A stretch of 39,053 bases of DNA from Candidatus Micrarchaeota archaeon (GCA_021809925.1 JAJZJV010000003.1:1-39053); one strand, 5' to 3'. Shown: positions 12,600 through 33,458, counted from the stretch's first letter. The notes: generated by a model not told the origin, from the sequence alone. A program made the numbers and translations.

Positions 12600-12611
12600 G
12601 CGTTGTCTCAA

Positions 12612-14662: not shown

Positions 14663-14684
14663 TTATAGCAACTCTGATTAATAA

Positions 14685-15255: not shown

Positions 15256-15302
15256 TGTTCCAGGGACAGGTCGCCAGTCAACTCTGGGAGCTTCACAAGA
15301 AG

Positions 15303-15322
15303 CCTCGGACCGAAGTCCGAGG
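15303..15322. repeat. perfect 8-bp stem hairpin just after the tnpA relic (possible IS200/IS605 right-end hairpin)
   Basis: CCTCGGAC-CGAA-GTCCGAGG. Confidence 0.4.
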
Positions 15323-15334
15323 TGATTCACGAAT

Positions 15335-16069
15335 TTACGAAGTCCATATAATACCACTACTACTATTTGCATCATATTGTTTTGTCTTAACGTTAAATCC
15401 TGCACTTATAAGGCATTTGGAGAGTGCATCAAATCCTCGTCTATGGTAATCTATACTTATTTGTTTTAGCTCTTTTAATTCTTCTATTGGTGTATTAAGG
15501 AATATATCATATTCTGAACCTTCACAATCCGATTTAATTATATCCGGATGATATTGTCTAATCACTTCACTCAACGTTGTCTGTTTAGTTTCAATTCCGT
15601 CTGCGGTCTCAGATAATGTTTGTGAACCATTAGTGTATCCATCTGAAAGAGTCATTTTCTTATTTTCCATCCCTATTGCTTCACGTTTAAGAATTATCTT
15701 ATCTTGCATATTATTCAGTCGAATATTCTCTTCTGCGCGATTATATTGATACAGATAAGGCTCATAAGCAATAACTTTTTTGGCTCCTTTATATGCAAAC
15801 AACAATGCCGTATCTCCAATGTTTGCACCAATGTCTAATACTACTTTATTTTTGACATCCAGAAAGTCATATTGCCCATCAAAGAAGTTCTCTCGTAATA
15901 CATAACTGTCATATGCCAAATCTTTTATTGTATCAAATCTAAAACGCATGCCATATTCACGCAACACACCAATACTTGGTATAAATGGCAAGATATACCA
16001 ATTCTCAAAATAACGATAATTAACAGAAATATTTCGCATACCCCACGCAAAACCTCTTATAGAGACCAT
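15335..16069 (-). CDS. FkbM-family SAM-dependent methyltransferase
   Basis: 244-aa ORF with VLDIGANIGDTALLFA (SAM motif I), AYEP, and IKSDCEGSEYDI, which is typical of the FkbM family. Confidence 0.8.
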   Translation of the reverse strand: MVSIRGFAWGMRNISVNYRYFENWYILPFIPSIGVLREYGMRFRFDTIKDLAYDSYVLRENFFDGQYDFLDVKNKVVLDIGANIGDTALLFAYKGAKKVIAYEPYLYQYNRAEENIRLNNMQDKIILKREAIGMENKKMTLSDGYTNGSQTLSETADGIETKQTTLSEVIRQYHPDIIKSDCEGSEYDIFLNTPIEELKELKQISIDYHRRGFDALSKCLISAGFNVKTKQYDANSSSGIIWTS

Positions 16070-17013
16070 CTTATCACAATAATTTTTTTATACATAAATG
16101 TTATTATATCAAGAATCCCCACCGGAAGCAGTGCAGCAAATGTAATTATCAATTTTTTTATGTTATCTTCTTTTAATTGATTAATATATTTAATATAATA
16201 ACTAAAAGGGTGTCTTTTTGCTTTTTTCGAAGCTCTTATTGCTCTAACATACTCTACAATTGGTAATTTGGGTGTTTTAGAATAACCTTTAAGCATAGCA
16301 AATACTTCATGCGATTGTATATATATTAAATCCATAATTCTACTATCCCAACTTCCGTTTTCGCCACGTATTTTTAAAAGACACTTCGATATCAACTTAC
16401 CTGTTAGACCTACTATTCCGTTATAAAATAGTAATGTGTGTGGATAGTTCTTGCCTGCATCTGTTCTCAAGGAATCTTTATTAAGTATAAGCTGATCCAT
16501 TATTACATCTCTTCTTATTACCATGCTACCCATATACAAAGAATAGCTGCCAACATCTTTTAATATTTTTTGATGCTCCCCTCTTTTATAAAGGCGATCT
16601 TCGGAGATCTTTAATGTATTATTTCCATTATGTTTTGACATGTCTTTATTCCATATCTCTGAATTTATTATAAGAAAATCATTTCCTAATAGATTACCTA
16701 ATATCTCCTCTATTGCATTCTTCATTGGAACATCATCATCACCCAGGAGCCAAACATATCTACCTGACGACATAACTAATGTTTTCTTGACATTTTCATA
16801 ATATCCAAGATTCTTTGAATTTCTATTATACTTTAAATTTGTGTGATGTTTCTGTAACTCTTTTACAACATTCTCTGTTCTATCTACAGAAGCATTATCA
16901 GATACGCATATTTCAATATTTTCTGAACAGATATTATCAAGTAATTGCACAAGCTCTTCTGCTCTATTGTGCGTGGGTATGCATATTGAAAGCATTGGTC
17001 GAGTCACGAGCAT
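16057..17013 (-). CDS. family-2 glycosyltransferase (paralog of 13670-14662)
   Basis: 318-aa ORF with LSICIPTHNRAEELVQLLDNI, ICVSDNASVDRT and LLGDDD. It overlaps the downstream methyltransferase start by 13 nt. Confidence 0.8.
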   Translation of the reverse strand: MLVTRPMLSICIPTHNRAEELVQLLDNICSENIEICVSDNASVDRTENVVKELQKHHTNLKYNRNSKNLGYYENVKKTLVMSSGRYVWLLGDDDVPMKNAIEEILGNLLGNDFLIINSEIWNKDMSKHNGNNTLKISEDRLYKRGEHQKILKDVGSYSLYMGSMVIRRDVIMDQLILNKDSLRTDAGKNYPHTLLFYNGIVGLTGKLISKCLLKIRGENGSWDSRIMDLIYIQSHEVFAMLKGYSKTPKLPIVEYVRAIRASKKAKRHPFSYYIKYINQLKEDNIKKLIITFAALLPVGILDIITFMYKKIIVIRWSL

Positions 17014-19441: not shown

Positions 19442-20476
19442 CTACTTCTTAATAAAATCCACCACTCTATCTGCAGAATATGCTTTCATCCCTCCGCCAT
19501 TCTTGAAGAACGAATCAAACCAGAGTGCGGTTTGTTTCACAGATTCCTCAAAGCTCATTTTCGGCTTCCAATTCAGTTTTGTTCTTGATTTAGTGGAATC
19601 AAGCAGGAGCAGTTCTTCCTCCAACCTTTTCTCTGGTCTCTTTATCTCATATTTCATGTTCCAGTGCATAGAGAATTCCTTCACCAGGTCGAGAACCGTT
19701 TTAGTCTCGTTTGCTGAGAAATTCCAAGCGCCAGAATATCCTTTTGGATCATGGTAAAGATTCTCGCATAAAATAAGATAACCATTAATTACATCAAGGA
19801 CATTGGACCATGGCCTTATTGATTCTGGATTTTTTATGATAAGTTTGGTTCTTTCTTTTTTGGCATTTACTATATCCGTAATTATTCTTCTTTCTCCCCA
19901 GTCTCCCCCTCCAATAATATTTCCGGCTCTGGCAGTAGCAACTCCTGCACCAGTAAAGAAACTTTCCTCATATGCTTTGGTTATCAGTTCTGAACAGGCT
20001 TTGCTAGAGCTGTATGGATCATTCCCTCCTAGTTTATCTTCTTCTACATATGGTTCTTTTCTATTCAGATTCTCATAAACCTTGTCTGTAGTCACATTTA
20101 TTATTACCTTAACCGCAGCTTCTTTACGCGAAGCCTCCAGTAAATTTAGTGTTCCAACCACATTTGTAGTATAAGTATCTAGAGGATTCTCATATGATCT
20201 GAGCAATATCGGCTGCGCTGCGAGATGCAATATAATCTCTGGTTTATGCTCTTTTATTGCGTCTGATATCTCTTTCCCATTTCTGATATCTCCTTTTATA
20301 TTAGTAATATTTTTTTCAATGCCGAGCAATTCATAGTGGGAAGGATTTGATGGTGGATTAAGGGAAAATCCAACAACATCTGCCTCAAGCATATTCAACC
20401 ATAGCGTTACCCAGGAGCCAACAAAACCCGTATGTCCTGTTATAAGTACTCTCTTATTCTTGAAAAATGAGCTCAA
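19442..20476 (-). CDS. rfbG: CDP-glucose 4,6-dehydratase
   Basis: 344-aa ORF with FFKNKRVLITGHTGFVGSWVTLWL, LHLAAQPILLRSYENPLDTYTTNVVGT and YSSSKACSE, the characteristic RfbG pattern. Confidence 0.85.
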   Translation of the reverse strand: MSSFFKNKRVLITGHTGFVGSWVTLWLNMLEADVVGFSLNPPSNPSHYELLGIEKNITNIKGDIRNGKEISDAIKEHKPEIILHLAAQPILLRSYENPLDTYTTNVVGTLNLLEASRKEAAVKVIINVTTDKVYENLNRKEPYVEEDKLGGNDPYSSSKACSELITKAYEESFFTGAGVATARAGNIIGGGDWGERRIITDIVNAKKERTKLIIKNPESIRPWSNVLDVINGYLILCENLYHDPKGYSGAWNFSANETKTVLDLVKEFSMHWNMKYEIKRPEKRLEEELLLLDSTKSRTKLNWKPKMSFEESVKQTALWFDSFFKNGGGMKAYSADRVVDFIKK

Positions 20477-21396
20477 GCAATAACCTCCTTTATTTTTTCA
20501 TACATCTTCTCTGCTGTAAGTCCATACCTATCCAACAGATAATCTCTGCTTCCAGAGATATGTACAAACTCGTCAGGAAGCGAGAACTTAAGGACCTTGG
20601 AATCAATTCCCGTAATCGAGGATGCAACTTTGTCAAACAAAGCTCCGGTGCTATCCTCAATAGTCACAACCAAGCTCTTGCCTTCTGCAGCAGATACGAT
20701 GGCAGGATAATCAAAAGGCTTCAATGTATGTATTTCCATAACTTCCACCGATCCTCCATCATTATCTAGCATATCTGCAAGCGCCATTGCTGCTCTAGTC
20801 ATGATTCCTGTCGATACAATAAGTATCTTGTCACCATCCCTAAGCCTTAGCGCTTTTCCTATCTTTATAGAACTATATTTTCCATGCTCTATATTTGGCT
20901 CGTTTTTTGCAAGGCGCATATAAACTGGTTTTTTGAAATCTTCCAGATGTTTCATAAACATCTCAACTTCTTTTGGGTCCGACGGGCTAAGAATTGTGAG
21001 ATTAGGTATAGCATCAGCTACTTTCAAATCCTCAAAAGGCAGGTGCGTAGATCCTGCGTCAGAGTACGCCAACCCCGCACCAACTCCTATCAATCTGACA
21101 GGAAGGTTATGGTAACATATGTCATTTCTTACCTGTTCGAATGGCCTATACAATAAGAAAGGTATAATTGAATATACAAAGACTTTTTTACCAGCAAGAG
21201 CCAAACCTGCAGATACCCCAATCATATTTTGCTCCGATATTCCTGCATTTATAAATTTGTCCGGATGCCTTTCCTTTATCGGCTCGAATACTGAGAATCC
21301 AAGGTCGCCTGTGATTAGATATGTATCATTCTTCTTATTCTCTCTCTCGAGATCCATTATCTCAAGCAAACTTTTTGCGAATGCTTTTCTCATCAT
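20473..21396 (-). CDS. transketolase, C-terminal (pyrimidine-binding plus C-terminal domain) subunit
   Basis: 307-aa ORF with FINAGISEQNMIGVSAGLA and GSTHLPFEDL. It has 4-nt overlaps with both neighbouring genes. Confidence 0.85.
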   Translation of the reverse strand: MMRKAFAKSLLEIMDLERENKKNDTYLITGDLGFSVFEPIKERHPDKFINAGISEQNMIGVSAGLALAGKKVFVYSIIPFLLYRPFEQVRNDICYHNLPVRLIGVGAGLAYSDAGSTHLPFEDLKVADAIPNLTILSPSDPKEVEMFMKHLEDFKKPVYMRLAKNEPNIEHGKYSSIKIGKALRLRDGDKILIVSTGIMTRAAMALADMLDNDGGSVEVMEIHTLKPFDYPAIVSAAEGKSLVVTIEDSTGALFDKVASSITGIDSKVLKFSLPDEFVHISGSRDYLLDRYGLTAEKMYEKIKEVIA

Positions 21397-22172
21397 AACT
21401 CCTCATCAAACTCCTCAATCTGTTCTTTTGTCGGAGGCCTGTAGTGCGACTCGAGCCTGTCTTCCATAGACTTAACTCCTTTCCCAAGCACAGTGTGTGC
21501 TACTATTAGCAAAGGGCCTTCATTTTTTGCTTCAAAGACTCTTATGATACTTTCATAATCATGCCCATCTATTTCAACCACATTCCATCCCGCAGCAGCG
21601 AATTCTTCTTTAATTCTTTCTTCTCCAAGCAATGTTCTATCAAAGGCTTGCCATTTATTACTGTCAACAATAGCAATTAGACTTTTAATCTTGTTTATTC
21701 CTACAAAATTCATGGCTTCTAGCGTGCTACCTTCCTGGCATTCACCATCACTCAATAACACATAAACTTTCCCTTTTTCTTTATTCCGTTCCTTCGAAAG
21801 TGCAATTCCTGCAGCTACAGAGAGCCCGTGTCCGAGAGATCCTGTAGCAATTTCAATGCCTTCTGTACCATATAATGGATGCTCTCCAAGACGAGATCCA
21901 TCTTTTCCTAACGAGTCATACGTATTGTCATCAATGATTCTCTTTTTGTGAAGCACAGAGTACAAAGCTAGTGCAGAGTGGCCCTTGCTAAGCACAAATC
22001 TGTCATCATCACCCATTATCTCAAAGTGCAGAGCGATTAGTATATCCAAACAGGAAAGGTCTGAACCTATGTGGGCAATTTTACTCTCATTGTGCTTAAT
22101 GAGCAAATCTTTTCTAAGTTCCTTTGAGAGTGCTTTTAGCTCATCCGCGCTTTTCATTTTCAGGTCCCTCAT
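21393..22172 (-). CDS. transketolase, N-terminal (ThDP diphosphate-binding) subunit
   Basis: 259-aa ORF with HIGSDLSCLDIL, LSKGHSALALY, TGSLGHGL, and the ThDP motif LLSDGECQEGS..EA. Confidence 0.85.
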   Translation of the reverse strand: MRDLKMKSADELKALSKELRKDLLIKHNESKIAHIGSDLSCLDILIALHFEIMGDDDRFVLSKGHSALALYSVLHKKRIIDDNTYDSLGKDGSRLGEHPLYGTEGIEIATGSLGHGLSVAAGIALSKERNKEKGKVYVLLSDGECQEGSTLEAMNFVGINKIKSLIAIVDSNKWQAFDRTLLGEERIKEEFAAAGWNVVEIDGHDYESIIRVFEAKNEGPLLIVAHTVLGKGVKSMEDRLESHYRPPTKEQIEEFDEEL

Positions 22173-23064
22173 AAAGTGCTATATTCTTCTCCATCCATCT
22201 CTTTGTCTTCTCTAATCCGTCTTTTAATGTTGTTTCTGGGATCCACCCGATCTCTTTTTTGATCTTTGTTATATCTGCTTGCCATACTCTCTCTTTTTCA
22301 GGTTCTCTATCCTCATTATCCCATACTGCATCTACGCCAAGCATCTTAACAACTTCCGATATCTTGCTCTGGAGCCCTGATCCAACATTGAATATCTCTC
22401 CGCTCTCAATATTATCCCTATTCTTTATTACTTTTTCATAAGCTCTCGAGACATCCTCTACAAAGACAAAATCCCTCACATTCTCAGGGTTTGACAGTTT
22501 TGCTCTCTCTCTTTTTATCAGAGAATATAGCAATGTTGGTATCAGCCTATGTTTTTCTTCATAATAACCATAAACGGAGAACAAGCGCAGAGTAGCTACC
22601 TTCCCCGTAGATTTTCTTAAACGTAACAAGTTAGATACGAGGGCCTTTGACATTGCGTAATCTGTACTTGGTTCTAACGTGTCAGTTTCCTTCATGGGCT
22701 TCTTCTTTAGCCCATACTCCGAGCTGCTTCCAGTATTTATAAACAAAGATATGTTTTCGGACGCATCAAGCAGATTAAGAGTTCCAAGTATATTGGTTTT
22801 TATGGCCTTCTCGGTATCTTTCTCAAAGTGATAGCCACCATACACTGCGCAATGAATCAAGACGTCTGGTTTTAATTTTTTAAGCATGTCTATTGTCTTG
22901 CCTCTATTGCAAATATCAAGATATTCTACATTTATCCCTTCCGTTCTCCAGTTACCTACTGATCTCGTCAAGCCTACGACTTCATTATCCTTGCCAAGGT
23001 GCTTAGCAACGTTTGAACCCACAAACCCTGATGCTCCTGTTACTACTATCTTCAAACTTTCCAT
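22141..23064 (-). CDS. NAD(P)-dependent epimerase/reductase (extended SDR)
   Basis: 307-aa ORF with IVVTGASGFVGSNVAKHL, GSSSEYG and DYAMSKALVS (YxxxK). It overlaps both the upstream and downstream genes. Confidence 0.85.
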   Translation of the reverse strand: MESLKIVVTGASGFVGSNVAKHLGKDNEVVGLTRSVGNWRTEGINVEYLDICNRGKTIDMLKKLKPDVLIHCAVYGGYHFEKDTEKAIKTNILGTLNLLDASENISLFINTGSSSEYGLKKKPMKETDTLEPSTDYAMSKALVSNLLRLRKSTGKVATLRLFSVYGYYEEKHRLIPTLLYSLIKRERAKLSNPENVRDFVFVEDVSRAYEKVIKNRDNIESGEIFNVGSGLQSKISEVVKMLGVDAVWDNEDREPEKERVWQADITKIKKEIGWIPETTLKDGLEKTKRWMEKNIALYEGPENEKRG

Positions 23065-23822
23065 ACATCTGCCACTCTTTCTCTTTTTTCCAAGATCTTT
23101 TCCAGGTCTTTCTTATCTTTCAGCGTGTCAACGCATTTCCAAAATCCTTCGTATTTATATGCACAAAGCTCTCCATCTTCAGAAAGCTGTTGCAGAGGGA
23201 AGGTCTCAAATGGCATTTCATCTCCTTCTATATACTTCAGAACTTTCTTTGACAAGACCATATAACCGCCATTTATGAATGGGCTCCGTTCAAGACGTTT
23301 CTCCTGGAAGGAAGTTACAAGGTCTCCATCCATCTCTAAGATCCCGAACCTAGGCATCCTCACGGCAGTCAGCGTCGCCATTTTTCCGTGCTTATTGTGG
23401 AAATCCAGTAATTTCTTTATATTAATGTCAGAAACGCCATCTCCGTAAGTCAGCATGAATGTATCGTCTTTAATATACTCCGCAGCCCGCTTTATCCTAC
23501 CTCCTGTCATCGTGTCAATTCCTGTATCAACAACCGTTACTTTCCAGTCAGGGGCATTTTTCTTTAATGTCTCGACTTTACCTGTGGAAACGTCAACCTT
23601 AAAGTCGTCGGAAGCCATGGAAAGACTTGCGAAATAGCTTTTTATCTTCTCTGATTTGTATCCTGCTGCAATCACGAAGTCATTAAATCCCCAATAGGCA
23701 TATGTCTTCATAATGTACCATAAAAGCGGCTTTCCAGCTATCTCAATCAAGGGTTTCGGGACTAAGGATGTCTCTTCGCTCAATCTGGTTCCGTATCCTC
23801 CTGCAAGTATTACGACTTTCAT
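23052..23822 (-). CDS. rfbF: glucose-1-phosphate cytidylyltransferase-like sugar nucleotidyltransferase
   Basis: 256-aa ORF with MKVVILAGGYGTRLSEETSLVPKPLIEIAGKPLLWYIMK.Y...GFNDFVIAAGYK, the RfbF signature. Confidence 0.8.
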   Translation of the reverse strand: MKVVILAGGYGTRLSEETSLVPKPLIEIAGKPLLWYIMKTYAYWGFNDFVIAAGYKSEKIKSYFASLSMASDDFKVDVSTGKVETLKKNAPDWKVTVVDTGIDTMTGGRIKRAAEYIKDDTFMLTYGDGVSDINIKKLLDFHNKHGKMATLTAVRMPRFGILEMDGDLVTSFQEKRLERSPFINGGYMVLSKKVLKYIEGDEMPFETFPLQQLSEDGELCAYKYEGFWKCVDTLKDKKDLEKILEKRERVADVWKV

Positions 23823-23949
23823 CTATATCACTCAAACATGAGAACCTTAATATCATGGCGTTAATATAATAAATATAGTAAGATATATTATGCTTATAGC
23901 CGCATAAAGAAGGTTTTAAACTCAAAAACTAATCAGCACAGTGGTGTCT

Positions 23950-24507
23950 ATGGAGCTTAAAGATGTTGAGAAGTACATAAACGATGGCATAAAAGCAAGA
24001 TCCGGGATAGATCCGAAACAAGTTCTAGACGTTGGGAAAGAGATAGGACGCAGGATGCTTGAAGGAAAGAAATTGATATTGTGTGGAAATGGGGGAAGCG
24101 CAGCAGACGCGCAGCACATAGCTGCAGAATTCGTGTGCAAATTCAAGAAGGAGCGGAAGGCATTGCCTGCATTTGCGCTTCATACAAACACATCAACAAT
24201 AACGGCAATAGGCAATGATTATAGCTATGATAACATATACGAGAGGCAGATAGAGGCGTTTGCATCTGCTGGCGATATCGTGATAGGGATCTCGACAAGC
24301 GGCAATTCTATAAACGTAATAAAAGCGATAGAAAAGGCCAATAAACTTGGATGCCTTACTATAGCATTCACAAGCAAGAGTGGGGGCAAGCTCAAAGAAA
24401 AGGCAAGCATTGTATTCAGCATAGATAGCAATGACACCCCAATAGTGCAAGAATCCTATCTTGCTGTGGGCCATATGCTGTCTCAGATCGTTGAGGATAT
24501 GGTATGA
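23950..24507 (+). CDS. gmhA: phosphoheptose (sedoheptulose-7-phosphate) isomerase, SIS domain
   Basis: LCGNGGSAADAQHIAAEF, AL.TN.S..TAIGNDY and GISTSGNS. ATG at 23950 is preferred over the GTG at 23941. Confidence 0.85.
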   Translation: MELKDVEKYINDGIKARSGIDPKQVLDVGKEIGRRMLEGKKLILCGNGGSAADAQHIAAEFVCKFKKERKALPAFALHTNTSTITAIGNDYSYDNIYERQIEAFASAGDIVIGISTSGNSINVIKAIEKANKLGCLTIAFTSKSGGKLKEKASIVFSIDSNDTPIVQESYLAVGHMLSQIVEDMV

Positions 24508-25022
24508 AGCCTGCCTTGTTTCTGGACAGAGACGGAACCATAAATATTGATTGTCCTTACTGCAGAAATGCAGATGAGATACATATATATGAGGATATCT
24601 TCGAACCGCTAGCGAAGCTGTCTAAAGATTTCTATATAATAATACTTACCAACCAGTCTGGCTTGGCCAGAGGCTACTTTACGGAAAAAGATCTGGAAGA
24701 CATGCACATCAAAATACGGAAAGAAGTGGAAGAGCGGGGAGGAAGGATCGATGCTTTCTATTTCTGCCCAGATCTTCCAGACATGGGTTCAAAGTGCAGA
24801 AAGCCAAACACCGGCATGCTGGATCGGGCCATGAACGATTTTGACATAGACAAGGATGGATCCTTTGTTATAGGCAACAGCGATTCCGACATCGAACTTG
24901 GAGATAGGGCAGGAATAAGGGCCATCCGGGTAAGAGAAGAAGGGAATACCGGCAGAAACGGTTTTTATGCTAAGGATTTTTATGAAGTATTAAATATTAT
25001 AATCAAGGAAGAGAGGAAATAA
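24504..25022 (+). CDS. gmhB: D-glycero-D-manno-heptose 1,7-bisphosphate phosphatase (HAD-IIIA)
   Basis: 172-aa ORF with LFLDRDGTIN (DxDGT), LTNQSG, CRKPN.GM and GNSDSD. It overlaps the gmhA stop by 4 nt. Confidence 0.8.
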   Translation: MKPALFLDRDGTINIDCPYCRNADEIHIYEDIFEPLAKLSKDFYIIILTNQSGLARGYFTEKDLEDMHIKIRKEVEERGGRIDAFYFCPDLPDMGSKCRKPNTGMLDRAMNDFDIDKDGSFVIGNSDSDIELGDRAGIRAIRVREEGNTGRNGFYAKDFYEVLNIIIKEERK

Positions 25023-25041
25023 AAAATGGATAAGTGATAGC

Positions 25042-25968
25042 ATGGTTGAGATAAGCGGTAAAAACATAATAGTAACTGGTGGTAGCGGTTTCATAGGCAG
25101 CAATCTCGTAGAGAGGCTCTGCAAGGACAATAAGGTTCATGTAATAGACAATATGCATACTGGTTCCAAGAAGAACCTATACGAAGCGATGAAATCCGGC
25201 AATGTAACACTTCACGAAAGCGATGTAAAAAACATCGGCAAACTCGGAATACATGCAGATCTGATATTCCATCTTGGAATGTACTCCGCATCTCCGATGT
25301 ACAGAGAGAACCCCCATCTTGTCAGCGAAGTTGTTGACGGGATGATCAGCGTCCTTGAGTATGCTAAGGCAAATAAGGTGCAGGTTGTGCTTGCATCCAC
25401 CTCTTCGATATACAATGGCATAAATCCGCCACACAAGGAAGATATAGTTCCAAAGGTCACTGATTATTATACTGAGGCAAGAATAGCAGCAGAACGCCTA
25501 TCAGAGCTTTACTCTAAATTACATGGGGTAAATGTTGCTGCAATGCGATTCTTCTCAATATATGGAAGGCACGAGGAATCAAAGAAGGGATATGCAAACC
25601 TCATTACACAATTCATCTGGGCGATGAGGAAAGGGGAGAGCCCCGTAATCTACGGCGATGGGAAGCAGAAGAGGGATTTTGTCTACGTCTCTGATGTTGT
25701 TGAAGCATTGATAAAAGGAACTGCGGTAAAGGGCTTTCTGGTAATTAATGTCGGGACAGGAAAGAATTATACCATAAATGAGATGGTAGAAAAGATAAAT
25801 TCAGCCCTAGGGACAAACGTGCCTCCAAAATACATCGCCATGCCTGTCTCAAATTATGTGATGGAGACGCTTGCAGATACAACAAAGGCTGAAAGATTGA
25901 TAGGCTTCAAAGCCAGCGTCTCATTAGATGATGGGATAAGGCGAATAATCAAAGAGGAAGGGCAATGA
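25042..25968 (+). CDS. NAD-dependent sugar epimerase/dehydratase family (extended SDR) with an atypical YxxxR catalytic motif
   Basis: 308-aa ORF with IIVTGGSGFIGSNLVERL and ASTSSIYNG. The expected YxxxK reads YTEAR (Y143, R147; codon AGA at 25480-25482). Confidence 0.8.
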   Translation: MVEISGKNIIVTGGSGFIGSNLVERLCKDNKVHVIDNMHTGSKKNLYEAMKSGNVTLHESDVKNIGKLGIHADLIFHLGMYSASPMYRENPHLVSEVVDGMISVLEYAKANKVQVVLASTSSIYNGINPPHKEDIVPKVTDYYTEARIAAERLSELYSKLHGVNVAAMRFFSIYGRHEESKKGYANLITQFIWAMRKGESPVIYGDGKQKRDFVYVSDVVEALIKGTAVKGFLVINVGTGKNYTINEMVEKINSALGTNVPPKYIAMPVSNYVMETLADTTKAERLIGFKASVSLDDGIRRIIKEEGQ

Positions 25969-26969
25969 AAGAGCATCCAGCAAAGAGAAGGATGATAATG
26001 TCAAAGACGCCACTGAGAATAACCTTCGTTGGGGGCGGAACGGATCTGTCTCAATATTATTCTTCATACGGCACTGGGTGCGTAATATCTGCAGCGATCA
26101 ACAAATACATTTATGTACTTGTGCACAAAGCTTTCGACAATAAAACAAGGGTCAGGTACTCCAAGACTGAGATAGTGGACAACATAGAAGACATAGAGCA
26201 CCCTACGGTAAGGGAAGCGCTTAAGCTCTTGGAGATCACTGATGGGATAGATATAAACGTAGTTGCAGACATCACTGATGGGGGCACTGGCCTTGGATCA
26301 AGCAGCGCTTTCCTAGTAGGATTGCTCAATGCGTTGCATGCGTGGAAAGGAGAGTATATTGGAGCTACACGGCTGGCTGAAGAAGCTGTGCTTATAGAAC
26401 GAGGAATTCTCAAGGAGCCTGGCGGAAAGCAGGATCAGTACATAGCCGCGCTTGGCGGAATACAGTTCTTGGAGTTCAATAAAGATGAAACCGTAGTCAA
26501 CACCCCAATAATAATGTATGAAGAGAGCAGGCGCAGGCTGGAAGAGAGCCTACTTTTCATGTATACTGGAAAGCAGAGGAAGTCTACAGAGATACTCAAA
26601 AAGCAGTCCGCAGACATCTCTGCGCACATTGCCTCTTATAATAAGATGGCTTCACTGGCCAGCGAAATGTTCACAAGTCTGATAGATAACAGATGGATTG
26701 ATACTGGGAAGTATCTGCATGAGAATTGGCTGCTGAAAAGAACCCTAAGCGAAGGCATAAGCAACGAATGGATAGATTCCATATACGATAGAGCCATGGA
26801 CTCAGGTGCACTTGGAGGAAAGCTTATCGGCGCAGGTGCTGGTGGTTTCATGCTCTTCTTCGCCCCTTCAGATAAGCACGAAGAGATAATTCGGGCTCTC
26901 CCGGAACTAAAGCAGGAGCCATTTGAGTTTGAGGCGTTGGGAAGCAGGATAATATATATTGGGGACTGA
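25965..26969 (+). CDS. hddA: GHMP-family sugar kinase, D-glycero-D-manno-heptose 7-phosphate kinase-like
   Basis: 334-aa ORF with TPLRITFVGGGTDL, GTGLGSSSAF (GHMP motif II) and GGKLIGAGAGGF (motif III). It overlaps the SDR stop by 4 nt. Confidence 0.8.
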   Translation: MKEHPAKRRMIMSKTPLRITFVGGGTDLSQYYSSYGTGCVISAAINKYIYVLVHKAFDNKTRVRYSKTEIVDNIEDIEHPTVREALKLLEITDGIDINVVADITDGGTGLGSSSAFLVGLLNALHAWKGEYIGATRLAEEAVLIERGILKEPGGKQDQYIAALGGIQFLEFNKDETVVNTPIIMYEESRRRLEESLLFMYTGKQRKSTEILKKQSADISAHIASYNKMASLASEMFTSLIDNRWIDTGKYLHENWLLKRTLSEGISNEWIDSIYDRAMDSGALGGKLIGAGAGGFMLFFAPSDKHEEIIRALPELKQEPFEFEALGSRIIYIGD

Positions 26970-27047
26970 GCCTGCAGAGTTCTTTCGCCCTCCAAACCAC
27001 CCCTCAGGTTAAATATTTTTCATGCCAAAAGCGAATCAGGTATTAAT

Positions 27048-27266
27048 ATGGCATTGAATATAAAATCAGAGGAAAAGACCACGACTCGCCAGAGAGCATT
27101 CATAATGTCGCATCAAGGAGGGAAAAGAACAGATGCCAGCATACTCGGCATAAATCCAAGGGATGCGGTTCTTATTGCAGCAGTCAGGAGCGGTGCTCCT
27201 TTGCGCGATGTCATGGCCGCACTGTCAAGAGTTGACGAAGGTGCGTGCTTCACCCGCATTGTATAA
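27048..27266 (+). CDS. hypothetical small protein (72 aa)
   Basis: The only evidence is an ATG-initiated ORF in an otherwise non-coding gap upstream of the 16S gene. No motif is recognised. Confidence 0.3.
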   Translation: MALNIKSEEKTTTRQRAFIMSHQGGKRTDASILGINPRDAVLIAAVRSGAPLRDVMAALSRVDEGACFTRIV

Positions 27267-27428
27267 GATCTTCAAATCCATCTTATATACCTTTATATGC
27301 ATATTTATTATCAGGCTTTGCGGCAAGGTGCGAGATTAACTTTTTCTTCCCACAACTCTGCAAGAAGGTATTTAAGCTTATTGTTGCAAAGTAATAGAAC
27401 ATAGCATTGCTATTGTATCGTATCTTAA

Positions 27429-27442
27429 AAGGTATATTTACA
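27429..27442 (+). promoter_or_regulatory. candidate 16S rRNA promoter (BRE/TATA-like AAAGGTATATTTAC)
   Basis: An A-rich stretch plus TATATTTA lies about 45 nt upstream of the processing stem. A similar box, AAGGTATTTAAG, occurs near 27365-27376, so these may be tandem promoters. Confidence 0.3.
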
Positions 27443-27484
27443 TCTTAGCTTGCTATTCATGAAAATTCCTGATGGAATTAGATA

Positions 27485-27515
27485 TAGTCTTGAGGAGTGC
27501 AAAGAGGCTCGCAGT
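27485..27515 (+). promoter_or_regulatory. 5' strand of the pre-16S processing stem
   Basis: TAGTCTTGAGGA pairs perfectly with TCCTCAAGACTA at 29593-29604. GAGGC/CGCAG pairs with CTGCG/GCCTC at 29571-29583, with bulges. This fits a bulge-helix-bulge-like excision stem. Confidence 0.65.
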
Positions 27516-28594
27516 AATTGCTTTACGCGGATACTTCCGCAGATTCCAGTCGATGCTGCTGGAGGACACCGCTATCAGATTTCGACAGCCATGCAAGTCT
27601 ACCCAGTGACTTCACTGGGTGGCGTACGGCTCAGTAACGCGTGGTCAATCTACCGCAGAGAAGGGGATAACCTTGGGAAACTGAGGACAATACCCTATAG
27701 GCTAAGTGCTCTGGAAGGAGCGTTAGCTTAAAGTGGATGCGAATTGGAGCATTTCAGCTCTGCGATGAGACTGCGTCGGATCAGGCAGATGGCGGGGTAA
27801 CGGCCCACCATACCTTTGACCTGTAGGGGATATGAAAGTATAAGCCCCGAGAAGGGCACTGAGACAAGGGCCCTAGCGCTACGGCGTGCAGCAGGCGCGA
27901 AAACTCCACAATGCGCGAAAGCGTGATGGGGGGAGTCTGAGTGGCACACTTTTAGTGTACCTTTTGCTAAGTCTAGACAGCTTGGCGAATAAGTGCTGGG
28001 TAAGTCCGGTGGCAGCCGCCACGGTAATACCGGCGGCACAAGTGGTGTTCACGATTATTGGGCTTAAAGAGTCCGTAGCTGGCCGAAACCGTCTTATGTG
28101 AAATATTGGTGCTTAACATCAATGCGTGCATAAGATACCTTTCGGCTAGGGAGCGGGAGAGGTCAAGAGTACTCATGGGGTAGGAGTAAAATCTTTTAAT
28201 CCTATGAGGACTACCGGTGGCGAAGGCGCTTGACCAGAACGCATCCGACAGTGAGTGACGAAGGCTAGGAGAACGAATCGGATTAGATACCCGAGTAGCC
28301 CTAGCAGTAAATTATGCAGACTTTAGGTGTTGCGCCTATCACGAATGGGTGCAGTACCGTAGGAAAACTGTTAAGTCTGCCGCCTGGGGAGTACGGCCGC
28401 AAGGTTGAAACTTAAAGCAATTGGCGGGGGAGCACACAAGGGGTGGATGCTACGGTTTAATTGAATTCAACGTCGGGAATATTACCTGGAGCGACGGCAG
28501 GATGATGGTCAGGCTAACGACCTTACCAGACGAGCCGAGAGGTGGTGCATGGCGATCGTCAGTTCGTGGTGTGAACTCTCCGGTTAAGTCCGGT

Positions 28595-29086
28595 ATGCTT
28601 TCGTGTGATTCTATGAAAACAATGCTAAAGCCAAAAATATGTTATATGGTTGGGCTCTTCTCAAAGAACTTGGGAGAGAACAATGCCATAGGGATTAGAA
28701 CCAACCTTAAAGAAGTGGAGGAACGCTTCATAGAGACAGCTATAAAAGAGCTCTCTATAGAACCAAGCAAGATCCTTTTCAGGGATGGAGATGTATTTTT
28801 CTATCACTCAAGGATCTACAAGCAATTTCTTGATATAATCAAGAGAGAGACTAAGATCTTTAAGACCGAAAACGAGCTTTCAAAGAGCTACGTTGCAGGT
28901 CTTTTCGATGCTGCTGGTTCTATTAAAAGAAGCGGAGTCCATATTAAGGGAATGAATCCCAGCGATGAGCTTATGTTAGAGGAGCTCGGAATCCACACGA
29001 ACGGAGGAAGAGTCTTGAACATAAGCAAGTTTTTCATGCTTATGAAGGGCTATAGCATTTTGTTGGAGATAACACGATTGCCCGGT
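28595..29086 (+). other. 16S rRNA intron (insertion near E. coli position ~1092-1096); boundaries +/- ~5 nt
   Basis: The conserved GGTTAAGTCCGG at 28581-28594 only continues as (T)ACGAACGAGACTC at 29087 onward. TCGTGT near the 5' end can pair with ACACGA near the 3' end, and CCGG occurs at both junctions. Confidence 0.75.
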
Positions 29087-29107
29087 TACGAACGAGACTC
29101 TCACTGA
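28613..29107 (+). CDS. intron-encoded LAGLIDADG-family protein, probably catalytically degenerate
   Basis: 164 aa counted from the ATG at 28613. Motif 2 reads YVAGLFDAAGSI and motif 1 reads YMVGLFSKNLGE. The stop lies about 20 nt inside the downstream exon. Confidence 0.7.
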   Translation: MKTMLKPKICYMVGLFSKNLGENNAIGIRTNLKEVEERFIETAIKELSIEPSKILFRDGDVFFYHSRIYKQFLDIIKRETKIFKTENELSKSYVAGLFDAAGSIKRSGVHIKGMNPSDELMLEELGIHTNGGRVLNISKFFMLMKGYSILLEITRLPGYERDSH

Positions 29108-29361
29108 CCGTTGCCAGCAGTCTAGAGATAGACTGGGCACTCAGTTGGGACCGCCTGCGTTTAAGCAGGAGGAAGGAGAGAGCAACGGTACGTCAGTATG
29201 CCCCAAATCTTCAGGGCCACACGCGGCATACAGAGGTTGGTACAATGGGTTGCAACTCAGAGATGGGAAGCTAATCCCCCAAAACCAACCAAAGTTCGGA
29301 TTGAGGATTGAAACTCATCCTCATGAAGCTGGAATCCCTAGTAATCGCTTGTCATCATCGA

Positions 29362-29397
<36 letters not shown>

Positions 29398-29570
29398 TGT
29401 CAAGTCATCCAAATGAGGCTCTAGTGAGGCAGTATCTATGATATTTTCGAACTAGAGTTTCGTAAGGAGGGCTAAGTCATAACAAGGTATCCGTAGGGGA
29501 ACCTGCGGATAGATCACCTCACAAACTTCACTTGAAGTATTGTAACCTAATAATGATTGTGTGCAAAATG

Positions 29571-29604
29571 CTGCGTAAGCCTCGCATTATTTCCTCAAGA
29601 CTAT
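29571..29604 (+). promoter_or_regulatory. 3' strand of the pre-16S processing stem
   Basis: Complement of 27485-27515, as described for the 5' strand. Confidence 0.65.
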
Positions 29605-29606
29605 AT

Positions 29607-29628
29607 TCTTATTTTTCATGTTTTTTCT
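29607..29628 (+). terminator. T-rich tract downstream of the 16S gene (candidate archaeal terminator)
   Basis: TCTTATTTTTCATGTTTTTTCT lies immediately after the processing stem. Confidence 0.3.
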
Positions 29629-29739
29629 AAATCTTTTATCTCGCAAGAATAGAAAGCTTTTTAAATTTTTCTTAAAAAAAGAGTAATCTTTAAATATGAT
29701 ATTTTACTCTAACATATTACAATTCCTAATGTGATATCA

Positions 29740-31587
29740 ATGAGTAAAGATAATATTATGCGAAATTCAGAGTACCTCAGGGCTCTCGGAAATGCAGTTA
29801 ATACTGAAATAGGCTTTTCAGAAGCCAACGGCAAAAGCCTGAATAGTGTTTCAAAATTTGAACATGGGATGAATGCTCTGAATCAAGCGAGAAATAGGGT
29901 AATTCCATCTCCCTCACAGACTATAAATACAACTGCATCTGGCGAAGGCCTGAAGAGTGTTTCAAAATTTGAACAAATGATGAAAGCAATGTCTCCGGCC
30001 GGGATGTATTGGGACTCTGGGGAACTGGTCTGGGTCAGGCCAAATAATACCAACGGTTCTCAGTTTGTTGCAGTCGGAACATTCTTCACAAAGATTGCCA
30101 ACAGCACAACAACACATCTGCACAACTCGGTTACAGTTGCAGAGAATATGGTAAAAGTTGGAACTTCTGTGGTTGTAGGGAATGTAAGCAATGCAATATC
30201 ATTCGCATCAAGCCTGGCTGGCAATGCTTATACGGTGACATCTGGCAAGATACATGGCGCTTATTCGTCTGCTGTATCATTTGGCTCTGATACATGGAAA
30301 AGAGCCTCAGACAATACGGTAGCTGCTTACTCACATGCAGTAAATACAGCCACGCATGCAACAAATTCGGTAAATAAAGCAGCAAAGGATGCTGCTTCTG
30401 TTTCTGGAAGTACGTACTCTGATATCGTTAATATCGGAAAGATTTCCTTCAAAACAACAGCGTCCATTGCATCGAGTACATATTACTCTACAGTTTCATC
30501 AAGCTCCGCAGGATGGAAGTATGTGTCTAACTCTGCTTCTGCAGCATACGGAAACATCTCCGCACATGTGCAAAGCGCATCCGACAAAGTAAGGACGAGT
30601 GCCATTGCGATAGCAGCAAAGGCAGCAGCAATATCCTCTGCAGCATCTCTCGGGACGGCAAGCCACTACACTCAAGCGAATGCATGGATCGGAAGTGCTG
30701 CGAAGAGCACACAGTCAAAGGCAGCGGGAGCATACGCAAACGTAGCAGGAGAGGCAGCCAAAGCAGTTGAATACGCCTCTTCACAGATAAATTATGCACG
30801 CACTACCTCCGCAAAGAGCGCGAAATCTGCAGCAAATGCTGTAGCAAGCATTCATGGAAATGTTGCACAGTTTGTAAGCAGAGATGTTAAACGGATGCGT
30901 GAGGAACTTTTAGAATCTCACACACGCACTTCAGAAGCAAGGCGAAGAACTAGAATAGCATCTTCCATAGTAAGAGGGAAAATTCAGGGATATGTGGACA
31001 TGGAAGGGAAGAGCATTCATTTTGTCCATCCATCATTTGGGAGTATTTCAGGCACTATCATTTCTACAGAGGATGGCCGTACGGCAATATCTTTATCTGA
31101 AAGCCAATCAACAGCCGCCACTGGAAGGCAACCATCAACAATCGCTTCGGCTTACGATGCAGCCAAAGCTGCAGTCTCTGCAGCTCCGGGCTTCTTCTCA
31201 AAGGTTCAGGCAAGCGTTGCAGCATCTGTAACAAAAACAATAAAGGGTGTTTCATCAACATTGGAAGAGGTTGCAAAGGCAAATATGATGCCTTTCCCAC
31301 CCGATTCGAGCACAGCTGAGAAGCAGCCTCAACTAAAGGCCGTGCCACCGAAGGTCTCAGAATCAGATAAGATAAAGCAGGAGATCAGGACTCTAAGGAG
31401 CTCAACTCCTGAAAAATCGCCAAATGGCAGATTCGGTACAAGGACTGAGCGTCATCAAGCAGAAAAAATGGGCGCAGAATTAGAAGTCCTAGAAGCAAGG
31501 CTCGCAAGGATGGATGCTCTTTCCAGCGCAGCAAGAAGAAGCGCAGAAAGTGCGGTAAGGAAGCAGCCACAGAGATTAAGAGCCTAG
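29740..31587 (+). CDS. Ala/Ser/Thr-rich repeat protein with a basic coiled-coil C-terminus, function unknown
   Basis: A long ORF of 615 aa from the ATG at 29740. It has an N-terminal duplicated SVSKFE(H/Q)(G/M)M module. The core has AY(S/G/A) or TY(S/Y) recurring every ~11-25 residues. The tail reads AELEVLEARLARMDALSSAARRSAESA. No TM helix or signal peptide is seen. Confidence 0.65.
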   Translation: MSKDNIMRNSEYLRALGNAVNTEIGFSEANGKSLNSVSKFEHGMNALNQARNRVIPSPSQTINTTASGEGLKSVSKFEQMMKAMSPAGMYWDSGELVWVRPNNTNGSQFVAVGTFFTKIANSTTTHLHNSVTVAENMVKVGTSVVVGNVSNAISFASSLAGNAYTVTSGKIHGAYSSAVSFGSDTWKRASDNTVAAYSHAVNTATHATNSVNKAAKDAASVSGSTYSDIVNIGKISFKTTASIASSTYYSTVSSSSAGWKYVSNSASAAYGNISAHVQSASDKVRTSAIAIAAKAAAISSAASLGTASHYTQANAWIGSAAKSTQSKAAGAYANVAGEAAKAVEYASSQINYARTTSAKSAKSAANAVASIHGNVAQFVSRDVKRMREELLESHTRTSEARRRTRIASSIVRGKIQGYVDMEGKSIHFVHPSFGSISGTIISTEDGRTAISLSESQSTAATGRQPSTIASAYDAAKAAVSAAPGFFSKVQASVAASVTKTIKGVSSTLEEVAKANMMPFPPDSSTAEKQPQLKAVPPKVSESDKIKQEIRTLRSSTPEKSPNGRFGTRTERHQAEKMGAELEVLEARLARMDALSSAARRSAESAVRKQPQRLRA

Positions 31588-32696: not shown

Positions 32697-33458
32697 CTAA
32701 AGCATCTCTATAAATGCCTTTATGTCTTTCAGCATCATTCTGGCATCTGGCTGGTTAGTAACATCCACATACTTCTTATCATAATATTCTACATTCGCCA
32801 GCATGCCTACCATCTGGCGATCGGAATATGCAATTATGTCTTTTATTCCCCTTATCTTCGCTATGCCATTCATATAATTAACATATTTTCTCTTGTTTGT
32901 CAATAATCTAAAGCCAATCCAAGTATCATATATATCTTTAAGTTCATTTCTGTCCAACATAGCAAGGGTCTTCTCTGCCATAAGGTATTCGATACTATAT
33001 GATGGAACTATGATTGGCGGCACCAATTGACCATAATAATAAAGTAAGTCTACAAGCTGAAGCTTCTCCGGTTCTTCAAAGATCTTCTCTGTAGGCACAA
33101 GGTCCAAAACTATCTCTTTATATGTCATTCTGGCAGAGGTTACTTTTCTTCCAGGGAAAGCTCCACTAAAGGTCATCTTTGCCCCAATCTTCTTAAGCAC
33201 TCTCAATGTCTTCTGATAAGAATACACAAAAATATCCAAATCATACGATAGACGCTGCTTCTTTCCAAAATATATCTTGTTAAGCGCAGTGCCTCCAAAC
33301 AAGCCAACCCTGCATCCTTCTTTCTCTAGCATTGGGAATATTTCACCCATGGCTTCGTATGTAGCTAAGCTTTTTCTAACCTTAGTCGCATCTATTCCCA
33401 GTTTTATTGCTAATTCGTTGAGATCTATATCATATTGCATTAAACCACTGCCTGACAT
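32697..33458 (-). CDS. AbiEii/AbiGii-family nucleotidyltransferase toxin (type IV TA)
   Basis: 253-aa ORF with LFGGTALNKIYFGKKQRLSYDLDIFVY (GGTAL ... R.S.DlD), a signature of the AbiEii/DUF1814 family. Confidence 0.8.
   Translation of the reverse strand: MSGSGLMQYDIDLNELAIKLGIDATKVRKSLATYEAMGEIFPMLEKEGCRVGLFGGTALNKIYFGKKQRLSYDLDIFVYSYQKTLRVLKKIGAKMTFSGAFPGRKVTSARMTYKEIVLDLVPTEKIFEEPEKLQLVDLLYYYGQLVPPIIVPSYSIEYLMAEKTLAMLDRNELKDIYDTWIGFRLLTNKRKYVNYMNGIAKIRGIKDIIAYSDRQMVGMLANVEYYDKKYVDVTNQPDARMMLKDIKAFIEML

Follow-up and report, generated by a model that had tools for sequence, protein, structure and literature searches.

The operon gmhA-gmhB-SDR-hddA of this Candidatus Micrarchaeota genome would direct synthesis of D-glycero-α-D-manno-heptose-1-phosphate, which is predicted to be activated by an unlinked nucleotidyltransferase (C29_NT) and then, as the NDP-heptose, modified by the extended SDR of the operon (SDRhep), with the divergent rfbF cassette belonging to a separate pathway. 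This reading is given a probability of roughly 60%. The window, i.e. the whole stretch of DNA analysed (JAJZJV010000003.1:1-39053; 39,053 nt), and one other contig of the genome include the following features.

23052-23822, minus strand, rfbF-like glucose-1-P cytidylyltransferase gene, gene 1 of the CDP-hexose cassette
19442-23064, minus strand, remaining cassette genes, SDR to rfbG (profile matches, synteny)
22141-23064, minus strand, cassette SDR
21393-22172, minus strand, N half of the split cassette transketolase (tktN)
20473-21396, minus strand, C half of the split cassette transketolase (tktC)
19442-20476, minus strand, CDP-glucose 4,6-dehydratase gene rfbG (TIGR02622, 408.8 bits, above 278.45)
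23823-23949, AT-rich divergent spacer between rfbF and gmhA (sequence reading)
23941-24507, plus strand, gmhA-like sedoheptulose-7-P isomerase gene (SIS), likely start ATG 23950
24504-25022, plus strand, gmhB-like heptose-1,7-bisphosphate 7-phosphatase gene (HAD-IIIA)
25042-25968, plus strand, extended SDR gene (SDRhep)
25965-26969, plus strand, hddA-like GHMP kinase gene (heptose-7-P 1-kinase)
27543-29522, plus strand, archaeal 16S (SSU) rRNA gene (Rfam RF01959, 1330.8 bits, model 1-1478 over 1980 nt)
G000:C29:19315-20046, minus strand, gene for the ManC/HddC-like nucleotidyltransferase C29_NT, unlinked to the operon

An ORF check of the window recovered all five ORFs of the initial annotation in place, and the plus-strand operon that it had described extends from 23941 or 23950 to 26969. 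The gmhA ORF opens at GTG 23941 and has an in-frame alternative start at ATG 23950; the spacer to the divergent rfbF-like gene is 118 bp from the former and 127 bp, the length first reported, from the latter. The tight coupling by 4-nt overlaps (ATGA) claimed for the operon holds for the gmhA/gmhB and SDR/hddA junctions, but gmhB and the SDR gene are separated by a 19-nt gap. As had been noted, the operon includes no dedicated nucleotidyltransferase gene. None lies 3′ of hddA, where tblastn with the operon-encoded nucleotidyltransferase of a relative gave no match, and the 16S rRNA gene, 573 nt beyond the end of hddA, closes off the downstream space.

The GmhA-like protein matched Pfam SIS_2 (87.3 bits) in a profile search. 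Its best NCBIfam match was gmhA TIGR00441 at 172.9 bits, under the equivalog cut-off of 209.45, and it was likewise under the cut-offs of the remaining GmhA models in NCBIfam. Its 12 best solved matches, headed by 2xbl/2x3y (150 bits), were all GmhA phosphoheptose isomerases, in keeping with the identity proposed for the SIS protein. Alignment with 2xbl showed that the GGSAADAQHIAxEF and QE..(L/A)xGH stretches, which we take to be metal/catalytic residues of GmhA, are retained, and orthologues in the heptose loci of relatives are 55–66% identical. The GmhB-like protein exceeded the cut-offs of TIGR01662 (109.8 bits, cut-off 44.6) and TIGR01656 (127.7 bits, cut-off 84.15) and reached 143.9 bits with its best GmhB model, NF006506, under the cut-off of 178; its best solved matches were the GmhB entries 4pnh, 3l8h, 3l8e and 2gmw. 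Its HAD-IIIA core carries the DxDxT motif as DRDGT (aligned to 4pnh and 3l8h). Against a GmhB identity, only half of the pattern C-x-H...C-x-C, presumably the zinc-binding motif of GmhB, is kept, with C-P-D...S-K-C in place of C-P-H...C-D-C in 4pnh.

The HddA-like kinase includes Pfam GHMP_kinases_N/C domains, and its best NCBIfam match was HddA NF049969 at 156.8 bits, far under the cut-off of 600, followed by a fucokinase model at 79.8 bits. Comparison with the solved heptose-7-P kinases 3k85, 4usm/4usk and 4n3o gave E values from 1e-38 to 2e-36, and those with fucokinase (4e-16), mevalonate kinase (2e-9) and galactokinase (5e-7) were much weaker. The kinase thus groups with heptose-7-P kinases and not with another GHMP specificity. 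Kinases of the GHMP type should yield the α anomer, so the predicted product is the α-1,7-bisphosphate. The family matches and solved relatives support the initial assignment of the four genes to an α-type (GHMP-kinase) heptose set.

HddA-like genes (E≤1e-20) were found in 94 of 400 other Micrarchaeota genomes sampled, the best match having at least 39% identity in 58 of the 94 (hand count). For each gene of the operon, the z-scores for GC, GC3 and codon usage stay within about 1.3 SD. Because the composition is native and HddA-like genes are this frequent in the phylum, the horizontal acquisition suggested earlier, taken as a recent event, is not supported. Twenty loci were fetched around best HddA matches, and GmhA, GmhB or both usually adjoin the kinase in them. 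An L7-type nucleotidyltransferase is encoded inside the cluster in five loci (L040, L041, L056, L059 and L042, the last with a truncated start) and a C29-type nucleotidyltransferase is adjacent or fused in four (L049, L050, L055 and L058). Ten have no nucleotidyltransferase gene within the fetched stretch. In L046 the orthologous cluster also lacks one, and a second HddA paralogue (41% identity) is followed by a divergent nucleotidyltransferase 34% identical to the L7 type. All five heptose-positive genomes with neither a nearby nucleotidyltransferase nor a C29-type one encode an L7-type enzyme elsewhere (202–234 bits). An unlinked nucleotidyltransferase appears to be normal for Micrarchaeota heptose genes. 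Fusions include GmhB-nucleotidyltransferase in G023 (483 aa) and SIS-nucleotidyltransferase in G106 (412 aa), both confirmed by Pfam, further GmhB-nucleotidyltransferase fusions in G365 and G375, the latter followed by tktN/tktC, and a transaldolase-HddA-like fusion in G106.

It is improbable that no heptose is made and that the substrate of the SIS, HAD and GHMP proteins is some other sugar phosphate. Such a reading would explain why all four heptose-specific scores of the operon proteins miss the NCBIfam equivalog cut-offs, and why genomes devoid of HddA and GmhA can still encode SDRhep and C29-type nucleotidyltransferases. It would further fit the scarcity of a substrate source: 23 of 27 HddA-positive genomes of the family to which the window genome belongs gave no transketolase match in a cross-tabulation, and neither transaldolase nor ribulose-P epimerase was found in the 93%-complete window genome. 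Both points also count against the main reading, in which the supply of sedoheptulose-7-P is doubtful. The cassette transketolase, the only one in that genome, is the sole candidate there for internal synthesis of this substrate. On the other side, the best NCBIfam match of all three enzymes is a heptose-pathway family, the solved structures nearest to them are those of GmhA, GmhB and heptose-7-P kinases, and their genes lie together throughout the 20 loci, with fusions to one another's partners. The same triad plus a nucleotidyltransferase gene is also present in the bacterial loci L130 (order NT-hddA-gmhA-gmhB) and L008.

The RfbF-like protein exceeds the equivalog cut-off of the glucose-1-P cytidylyltransferase model TIGR02623 (316.2 against 300.25 bits) and is encoded in the same operon as rfbG. 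In a tree it falls within a 100/99-supported clade of 15 RfbG-linked nucleotidyltransferases on a branch no longer than those of its neighbours (0.29 against 0.2–0.25). The gene order rfbF-SDR-tktN-tktC-rfbG is conserved in five other Micrarchaeota genomes (G204, G349, G238, G305 and G215; loci L090-L094). HddA and GmhA are absent from four of these, one of them consisting of a single 1.2-Mb contig. In the fifth, G215, the cassette and the heptose unit are on different contigs, and the latter has its own nucleotidyltransferase gene after hddA. RfbF and RfbG are linked in 14 of 18 RfbG-centred loci examined, and gmhA/hddA-like genes lie within 10 kb in one of the 18 (L101). The cassette is most likely a separate CDP-hexose pathway that merely neighbours the heptose operon.

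The initial annotation had raised the possibility that RfbF makes CDP-heptose or serves both operons. RfbF would then also convert heptose-1-P to CDP-α-heptose, RfbG and the SDRs possibly would give CDP-6-deoxyheptose, and the cassette transketolase would supply sedoheptulose-7-P. Consistent with this, the 127-bp spacer is common to both units and the heptose operon is devoid of a nucleotidyltransferase gene; the L7-type nucleotidyltransferase of relatives matches RfbF best in the window genome (tblastn, 93 bits against 85 for C29), and the L7 and RfbF types form sister clades (98/93). The only transketolase lies in the cassette, and enzymes making sedoheptulose-7-P are linked to heptose genes in the relatives G375 and G106. 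However, this proposal is unsupported, because the conserved cassette occurs independently of GmhA/HddA and none of the 20 heptose loci has an RfbF-type nucleotidyltransferase gene; we regard it as unlikely. Very doubtful is the fullest version, in which the two divergent units would form one pathway, transketolase giving sedoheptulose-7-P, GmhA, HddA and GmhB giving α-heptose-1-P, RfbF cytidylating it and RfbG and the SDRs forming CDP-6-deoxyheptose. If true, it would be an NTP_transferase-fold route to CDP-α-heptose, of which no description was found in the literature searched.

The activating enzyme is most likely the mannose-type nucleotidyltransferase encoded elsewhere, C29_NT, and not the neighbouring RfbF. 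In each of G023, G106, G173 and G209, the protein that C29_NT matches best is the heptose-linked nucleotidyltransferase itself (41–44% identity, 171–189 bits; next ≤101.5), and in reverse these proteins all match C29_NT best among the four nucleotidyltransferases of the window genome in the reference panel. Trees group C29_NT with the nucleotidyltransferase fusions (91/88 in one, SH-aLRT 86 in another); four genomes encode its relatives as fusions with GmhB or GmhA, and in others they adjoin heptose genes. Among solved structures, C29_NT is nearest to mannose-1-P guanylyltransferases, and Yersinia HddC (6jq8/5xhw) was also matched at 94 bits. The HddC model NF049965 scores C29_NT (129 bits) above the operon-encoded L7-type enzyme (106.9) and RfbF (86), but under the equivalog cut-off of 300, which no gene passed in a search of the whole genome.

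Several observations count against a heptose role of C29_NT. The family is not heptose-specific, as HddA is absent from 14 of 30 other genomes carrying a C29-type nucleotidyltransferase (E≤1e-40), GmhA is also absent from all five tested of these, and their C29-type enzymes are intermixed in the tree with heptose-linked members. C29_NT is most similar (47–48% identity) to copies in G009 and G150 that are unlinked, the latter genome having a second copy, and its gene lies at a contig end beside CysD/CysN-like genes and not beside sugar genes. An HddC-like gene elsewhere, which the initial annotation had named as contrary to its proposal, would thus be present, in a soft sense, as C29_NT. Most likely, the puzzle of the missing activator, and hence CDP-heptose, has this ordinary answer.

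A different activator is also unlikely, although marginally less so than RfbF. Candidates would be generic NTP-transferases on C20 or C11, scored by the HddC model at 75 and 60 bits, or a 146-aa HldE-domain-II-like protein of the cytidylyltransferase fold on C32, which reached 77.9 bits with rfaE_dom_II and has as best solved match 3glv, labelled 'LPS core biosynthesis protein'; alternatively, the heptose phosphate may stay unactivated or an activated sugar may be exchanged with the host. In the 20 loci, C20- and C11-type enzymes are not adjacent to heptose genes, the exception being a C20-type gene about 8 kb off in L045. A cytidylyltransferase-fold (HldE-type) nucleotidyltransferase acts on β-heptose-1-P, at odds with the α product expected of a GHMP kinase. 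Archaea are reported to have monodomain heptose nucleotidyltransferases, but the C32 protein is without the (F/L)xxGRSTT motif named in that report (PMC11573728).

SDRhep matched Pfam Epimerase (137.9 bits), and its best NCBIfam match was heptose_epim TIGR02197 at 130.2 bits, under the HldD cut-off of 274.6; among solved proteins it comes nearest to 6dnt, UXS and GalE-type enzymes. Counting against the predicted role, its catalytic motif is Y-x-x-x-R and not Y-x-x-x-K, Arg replacing the catalytic Lys of SDRs, and Y-T-E-A-R is present in all four orthologues aligned. Orthologues with 59–73% identity are encoded in 12 of the 20 heptose loci of relatives. In G027 one (65% identity) adjoins a C29-type nucleotidyltransferase gene; given this adjacency, SDRhep would be functionally tied to that family, and it probably modifies the NDP-heptose by epimerase-like chemistry.

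From the gene order, family resemblance, comparative linkage and fusions, a pathway can be predicted with its catalytic steps, anomer, nucleotide, SDR reaction and glycan destination. GmhA would isomerise sedoheptulose-7-P, the HddA-like kinase would add a phosphate at O1, and GmhB would take off the 7-phosphate. C29_NT, and not RfbF, would then activate heptose-1-P, probably giving GDP-heptose, which SDRhep would alter before glycosyltransferases build the resulting sugar into a surface glycan. Counting against this reading, neither STT3/AglB nor a GT9 heptosyltransferase was found in a search of the window genome.

The bacterial GDP-D-glycero-α-D-manno-heptose pathway of GmhA, HddA, GmhB and HddC serves the Aneurinibacillus S-layer glycan and Campylobacter, Burkholderia and Yersinia capsules. 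Shared with it are the three enzyme families in one operon, a kinase nearest to solved HddA/WcbL-type enzymes, a candidate activator resembling ManC/HddC, and the gene set of the bacterial locus L130. Unlike it, the present system is in a 0.9-Mb DPANN archaeon, with an unlinked nucleotidyltransferase, scores under equivalog cut-offs, an extra conserved Y-x-x-x-R SDR and no GT9 heptosyltransferase found. The cassette resembles the RfbF/RfbG CDP-glucose pathway (3,6-dideoxyhexose route) in its linked RfbF and RfbG, both above equivalog cut-offs, and differs in the split transketolase and SDR inserted between them and, in four of five relatives, in having no link to heptose genes.

That heptose is poorly documented in archaea, as first stated, is partly true. 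Thermoplasma acidophilum and Cuniculiplasma are reported to carry D-glycero-D-galacto-heptose in their N-glycans (PMC11407970, PMC12448462), likewise archaeal surface glycans. Archaeal HldE-type enzymes of NDP-β-heptose synthesis, with ADP-, CDP- and UDP-heptose as possible products, are described as well, so that heptose activation in archaea has a precedent and CDP-heptose is a real metabolite (PMC11573728). That system combines a ribokinase-type kinase with a cytidylyltransferase-fold nucleotidyltransferase and the β anomer, whereas a GHMP kinase and candidate nucleotidyltransferases of the NTP_transferase fold are found here.

The operon is most likely a further example of a known heptose pathway with its activator encoded elsewhere. 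Cultivated Micrarchaeota have a glycosylated S-layer, and one study reported no activated-sugar genes in them and suggested that such sugars come from the host (bioRxiv 10.1101/2021.04.28.441871). Roughly one in four of the Micrarchaeota genomes sampled has an HddA-like gene; this frequency, the location of GmhA/GmhB beside the kinase and the GmhB-nucleotidyltransferase, SIS-nucleotidyltransferase and transaldolase-kinase fusions suggest that many such reduced archaea produce one or more unusual activated sugars of their own. Thermoplasmatales are the hosts of cultivated Micrarchaeota (PMC8975820) and are reported to display heptose in N-glycans (PMC12448462); therefore, a shared or mimicked surface sugar would be a testable idea for DPANN-host recognition.

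The heptose operon, the neighbouring cassette and the rRNA gene are arranged as follows.

19442–23822, minus strand: cassette of overlapping genes, rfbF-SDR-tktN-tktC-rfbG
23052–23822, minus strand: rfbF of the cassette, divergent from gmhA
23941 or 23950–24507, plus strand: gmhA
24504–25022, plus strand: gmhB
25042–25968, plus strand: operon SDR
25965–26969, plus strand: hddA-like GHMP kinase gene
27543–29522, plus strand: archaeal 16S rRNA gene

The ORFs of the initial annotation were confirmed at their coordinates. The 4-nt overlaps it described are present (ATGA) between gmhA and gmhB and between the SDR gene and hddA, but gmhB and the SDR gene are separated by a 19-nt gap. The 127-bp spacer between gmhA and rfbF is obtained with ATG at 23950 as the gmhA start; the first start codon of the ORF is GTG at 23941. 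The 16S rRNA gene begins 573 nt 3′ of hddA, hence the operon ends at hddA. The reported lack of a nucleotidyltransferase (NT) gene in the operon was borne out, as tblastn with a relative's NT found no match 3′ of hddA in 26970–29700, a region taken up by the 16S rRNA gene. An NT pseudogene remnant at this site was rejected on the same search.

The 16S rRNA gene is 1980 nt long, compared with the 1478 positions of the model. Its alignment is colinear to about window position 28262 (model position 708), and the ~490 extra nt found 3′ thereof, which overlap an ORF at 28421–29107, may represent an intron or insertion in the rRNA gene. Neither this ORF nor that at 29731–31587 yielded a usable Pfam match at E ≤ 1.

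The window corresponds to contig C3 in full (39,053 bp). The genome comprises 907,647 bp in 48 contigs and is 93% complete; Candidatus Micrarchaeota MAGs are the closest to it in public data. Among the loci obtained by scanning genome contigs (4) and metagenome contigs (5), no close relative had the divergent arrangement of heptose operon and cassette.

The GmhA-like protein has an SIS_2 match and scores 172.9 bits with TIGR00441 (gmhA), under the cut-off of 209.45. Its 12 best matches among solved structures are phosphoheptose isomerases, and DiaA ranks only beneath them. The GmhB-like protein is above the cut-offs for the HAD-IIIA and histidinol-phosphatase-domain models and below the GmhB-specific one (143.9 vs 178). 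GmhB entries are its closest solved structures; DRDGT is retained, and the zinc-site pattern is C-P-D...S-K-C. The kinase includes the GHMP N and C domains and scores 156.8 with the HddA model NF049969, far under the cut-off of 600. It matches four heptose-7-P kinase structures at E values of 1.2e-38 to 2.3e-36, and more weakly fucokinase (4e-16), mevalonate kinase (2e-9) and galactokinase (5e-7). Since the kinase and the SIS protein are closest to heptose enzymes among solved structures, neither another GHMP specificity nor a non-heptose SIS protein is indicated, and the heptose assignment proposed initially withstands this check.

The operon SDR is weakly HldD-like (130.2 vs a cut-off of 274.6) and is closer to 6dnt, UDP-glucuronate decarboxylases and GalE-type epimerases than to HldD. 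In this protein and three orthologues the SDR motif Y-x-x-x-K is represented by Y-T-E-(A/G)-R, with Arg replacing the catalytic Lys. The same proteins have S-S-I-Y at the site of S-E-V-Y in UXS. The operon is real and, as judged by resemblance and conserved linkage, probably encodes the α-type heptose-1-P route.

In GC, GC3 and codon usage (z-scores), the four heptose genes deviate by no more than ~1.3 SD from 560 long ORFs of the genome. Of 400 other genomes sampled from the phylum, 94 have an HddA-like kinase match at E ≤ 1e-20; in 58 genomes, by hand count of these matches, the best one has at least 39% identity. The native composition and wide distribution argue against the recent horizontal acquisition that had been suggested. 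The heptose genes may have an old bacterial origin; the nearest non-Micrarchaeota loci found are bacterial (43% identity). Elsewhere in the window, three GT2 glycosyltransferase genes and an FkbM-type methyltransferase gene at 12603–17013 have a GC of 0.31–0.37, 2–4 SD under the genome ORFs, and this segment looks like a variable glycan island.

No gene in the 93%-complete genome passes the cut-off of the HddC or HldE-domain-II model. An unlinked NT on contig C29 (C29 NT) is the best candidate for the activating enzyme. It is one of three NTP_transferase genes present besides rfbF.

Candidate activating enzymes in the genome
C29:19315–20046: C29 NT; HddC model 129 bits, highest in the genome
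Contig C20: NT; HddC model 75 bits
Contig C11: NT; HddC model 60 bits
Contig C32: cytidylyltransferase-fold protein of 146 aa; rfaE_dom_II 77.9 bits, best solved match 3glv

An HldE-type route was rejected, as its sole find, the C32 protein, falls below the cut-off of 181.5 bits and lacks (F/L)xxGRSTT, the motif named for promiscuous heptose nucleotidyltransferases (PMC11573728). The best solved relatives of the C29 NT are mannose-1-P guanylyltransferases, and Yersinia HddC gives 94 bits. Adjoining the C29 NT gene, at C29:17293–19309, are CysD-like (PAPS_reduct) and CysN-like GTPase genes, which could indicate that sulfate is activated to make sulfated glycans.

Regions of up to 20 kb surrounding the 20 top-ranking HddA matches were compared, with genes mapped by BLAST against a panel. 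In these loci gmhA, gmhB, the operon SDR gene (12/20; 59–73% identity) and hddA recur together. An NT of the type termed L7 lies within the cluster in five loci (L040, L041, L056, L059 and L042, the last with only the first 15 codons, MKAFILAGGKGLRLR, before the contig end), and four have an adjacent or fused NT of the C29 type (L049, L050, L055 and L058). The fetched stretch contains no NT in 10/20. Locus L046 has the orthologous cluster without an NT, but also a second HddA paralogue (41% identity), after which comes a divergent NT that is 34% identical to the L7 type. The fusions found are listed below; tktN/tktC follow that of G375.

Fusion genes in other Micrarchaeota genomes
L049:8068–9519 (G023): GmhB-NTP_transferase, 483 aa, Pfam-confirmed
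L050:5316–6554 (G106): SIS(GmhA)-NTP_transferase, 412 aa, Pfam-confirmed
L050:2226–3872 (G106): transaldolase-GHMP kinase, 548 aa, Pfam-confirmed
L124:3965–5146 (G365): GmhB-NTP_transferase
L125:3000–4241 (G375): GmhB-NTP_transferase

Five heptose-positive genomes with neither a nearby NT nor a C29-type NT all carry an L7-type NT elsewhere (202–234 bits), so that unlinked NTs are common within this phylum.

The initial annotation had raised the possibility that the RfbF-like cytidylyltransferase activates heptose-1-P as CDP-heptose. L7-type NTs are indeed sister to the RfbF clade (98/93), hence the two folds are close. However, none of the 20 heptose loci has an RfbF-type NT, and the cassette, in which rfbF (TIGR02623, 316.2 > 300.25) and rfbG (TIGR02622, 408.8 > 278.45) flank an SDR gene and a split transketolase, is found in genomes without heptose genes. 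RfbG-like matches at E ≤ 1e-40 occur in 52/400 other genomes, and 18 loci were fetched and compared. The gene order is conserved in G204, G238, G305 and G215, and in G349 without the SDR gene (loci L090–L094); none of these fetched stretches includes heptose genes. G204, G238 (one 1.2-Mb contig), G305 and G349 are not HddA-positive and have no GmhA match, thus the cassette works without heptose genes. Only L101 among the 18 RfbG loci has gmhA/hddA-like genes within 10 kb. Nor does RfbF show signs of an altered role; in a 29-NT tree it has an ordinary branch length and falls in a cassette subclade (99/100) inside a clade of 15 RfbG-linked NTs (100/99). Activation via RfbF is accordingly improbable. 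Joining the heptose and cassette contig ends of G215 was rejected, there being no suffix-prefix overlap; the fragment 3′ of hddA in G215 is the start of an L7-type NT. No literature on transketolase together with CDP-glucose was found.

The genome has no transketolase other than that of the cassette, and neither transaldolase nor ribulose-phosphate epimerase was found in the 93%-complete assembly. Transketolase matches occur in 191/400 other genomes of the phylum, 10/82 of the window's family and 11/94 of the sister family. Cassette-type enzymes are 55–62% identical to that of the window, other copies 35–48% (mostly 37–42%). An obligatory role in sedoheptulose-7-P supply was rejected as a general rule, given that among the family's 27 HddA-positive genomes cross-tabulation found transketolase in 4 and its absence from 23, and that the cassette type occurs in heptose-less genomes. 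Heptose producers generally do not depend on transketolase, but in this genome the cassette enzyme may feed the heptose operon. PMC5864196 describes the pentose phosphate pathway as patchy across Micrarchaeota.

STT3/AglB (PF02516) had no match in the 93%-complete genome and matched in all four archaeal control genomes; GT9 was not found in the genome. Contigs C29, C48 and C25 carry GT4 genes akin to those that neighbour heptose loci in relatives. Archaea possess HldE-type heptose enzymes, some yielding CDP- or UDP-β-heptose (PMC11573728), and PMC11407970 and PMC12448462 report D-glycero-D-galacto-heptose in Thermoplasma and Cuniculiplasma N-glycans. For one cultivated species, bioRxiv 10.1101/2021.04.28.441871 reports a glycosylated S-layer and that activated-sugar synthesis was not found. 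Literature on heptose and DPANN or archaeal HddA, supplements aside, gave no description of an α-heptose pathway in Micrarchaeota.

Other features of the window, all on the minus strand, are an archaeal RNase P RNA match at 34360–34595 (95.8 bits, gathering score 84; 236 nt vs a 288-position model), a 61-nt Rfam tRNA match at 11691–11751 barely above threshold (31.7 vs 29; the window has no tRNA according to ARAGORN), an AbiEii-type nucleotidyltransferase toxin gene at 32697–33458, and an IS605 OrfB/TnpB-like gene (Cas12f1-like TNB domain) at 38131–38880.

In G023, G106, G173 and G209, the best match of the C29 NT is exactly the heptose-linked NT (41–44% identity, 171–189 bits), the next-best reaching at most 101.5 bits; conversely, these heptose-linked NTs match the C29 NT best among the four panel NTs of the window genome. 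In the 29-NT tree the C29 NT groups with two fusions (91/88). C29-type NTs (E ≤ 1e-40) were found in 30 other genomes, 16 with and 14 without HddA, and GmhA was absent from all five tested of the latter. In a quick tree of 30 rows, in which heptose-linked, unlinked and heptose-less members were intermixed, the C29 NT grouped with four sequences, three of them fusions and the fourth a heptose-less member (SH-aLRT 86). We read the C29 type as a ManC-like family that would act on mannose-type sugar-1-phosphates generally and be used, sometimes fused, for heptose-1-P. Its use by heptose producers would make the unlinked ManC/HddC-like C29 NT the most likely candidate for heptose activation rather than a proven dedicated enzyme. 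The account as a whole, in which the operon would provide heptose-1-P and the C29 NT would be its likely activator, is given a probability of about 0.6.
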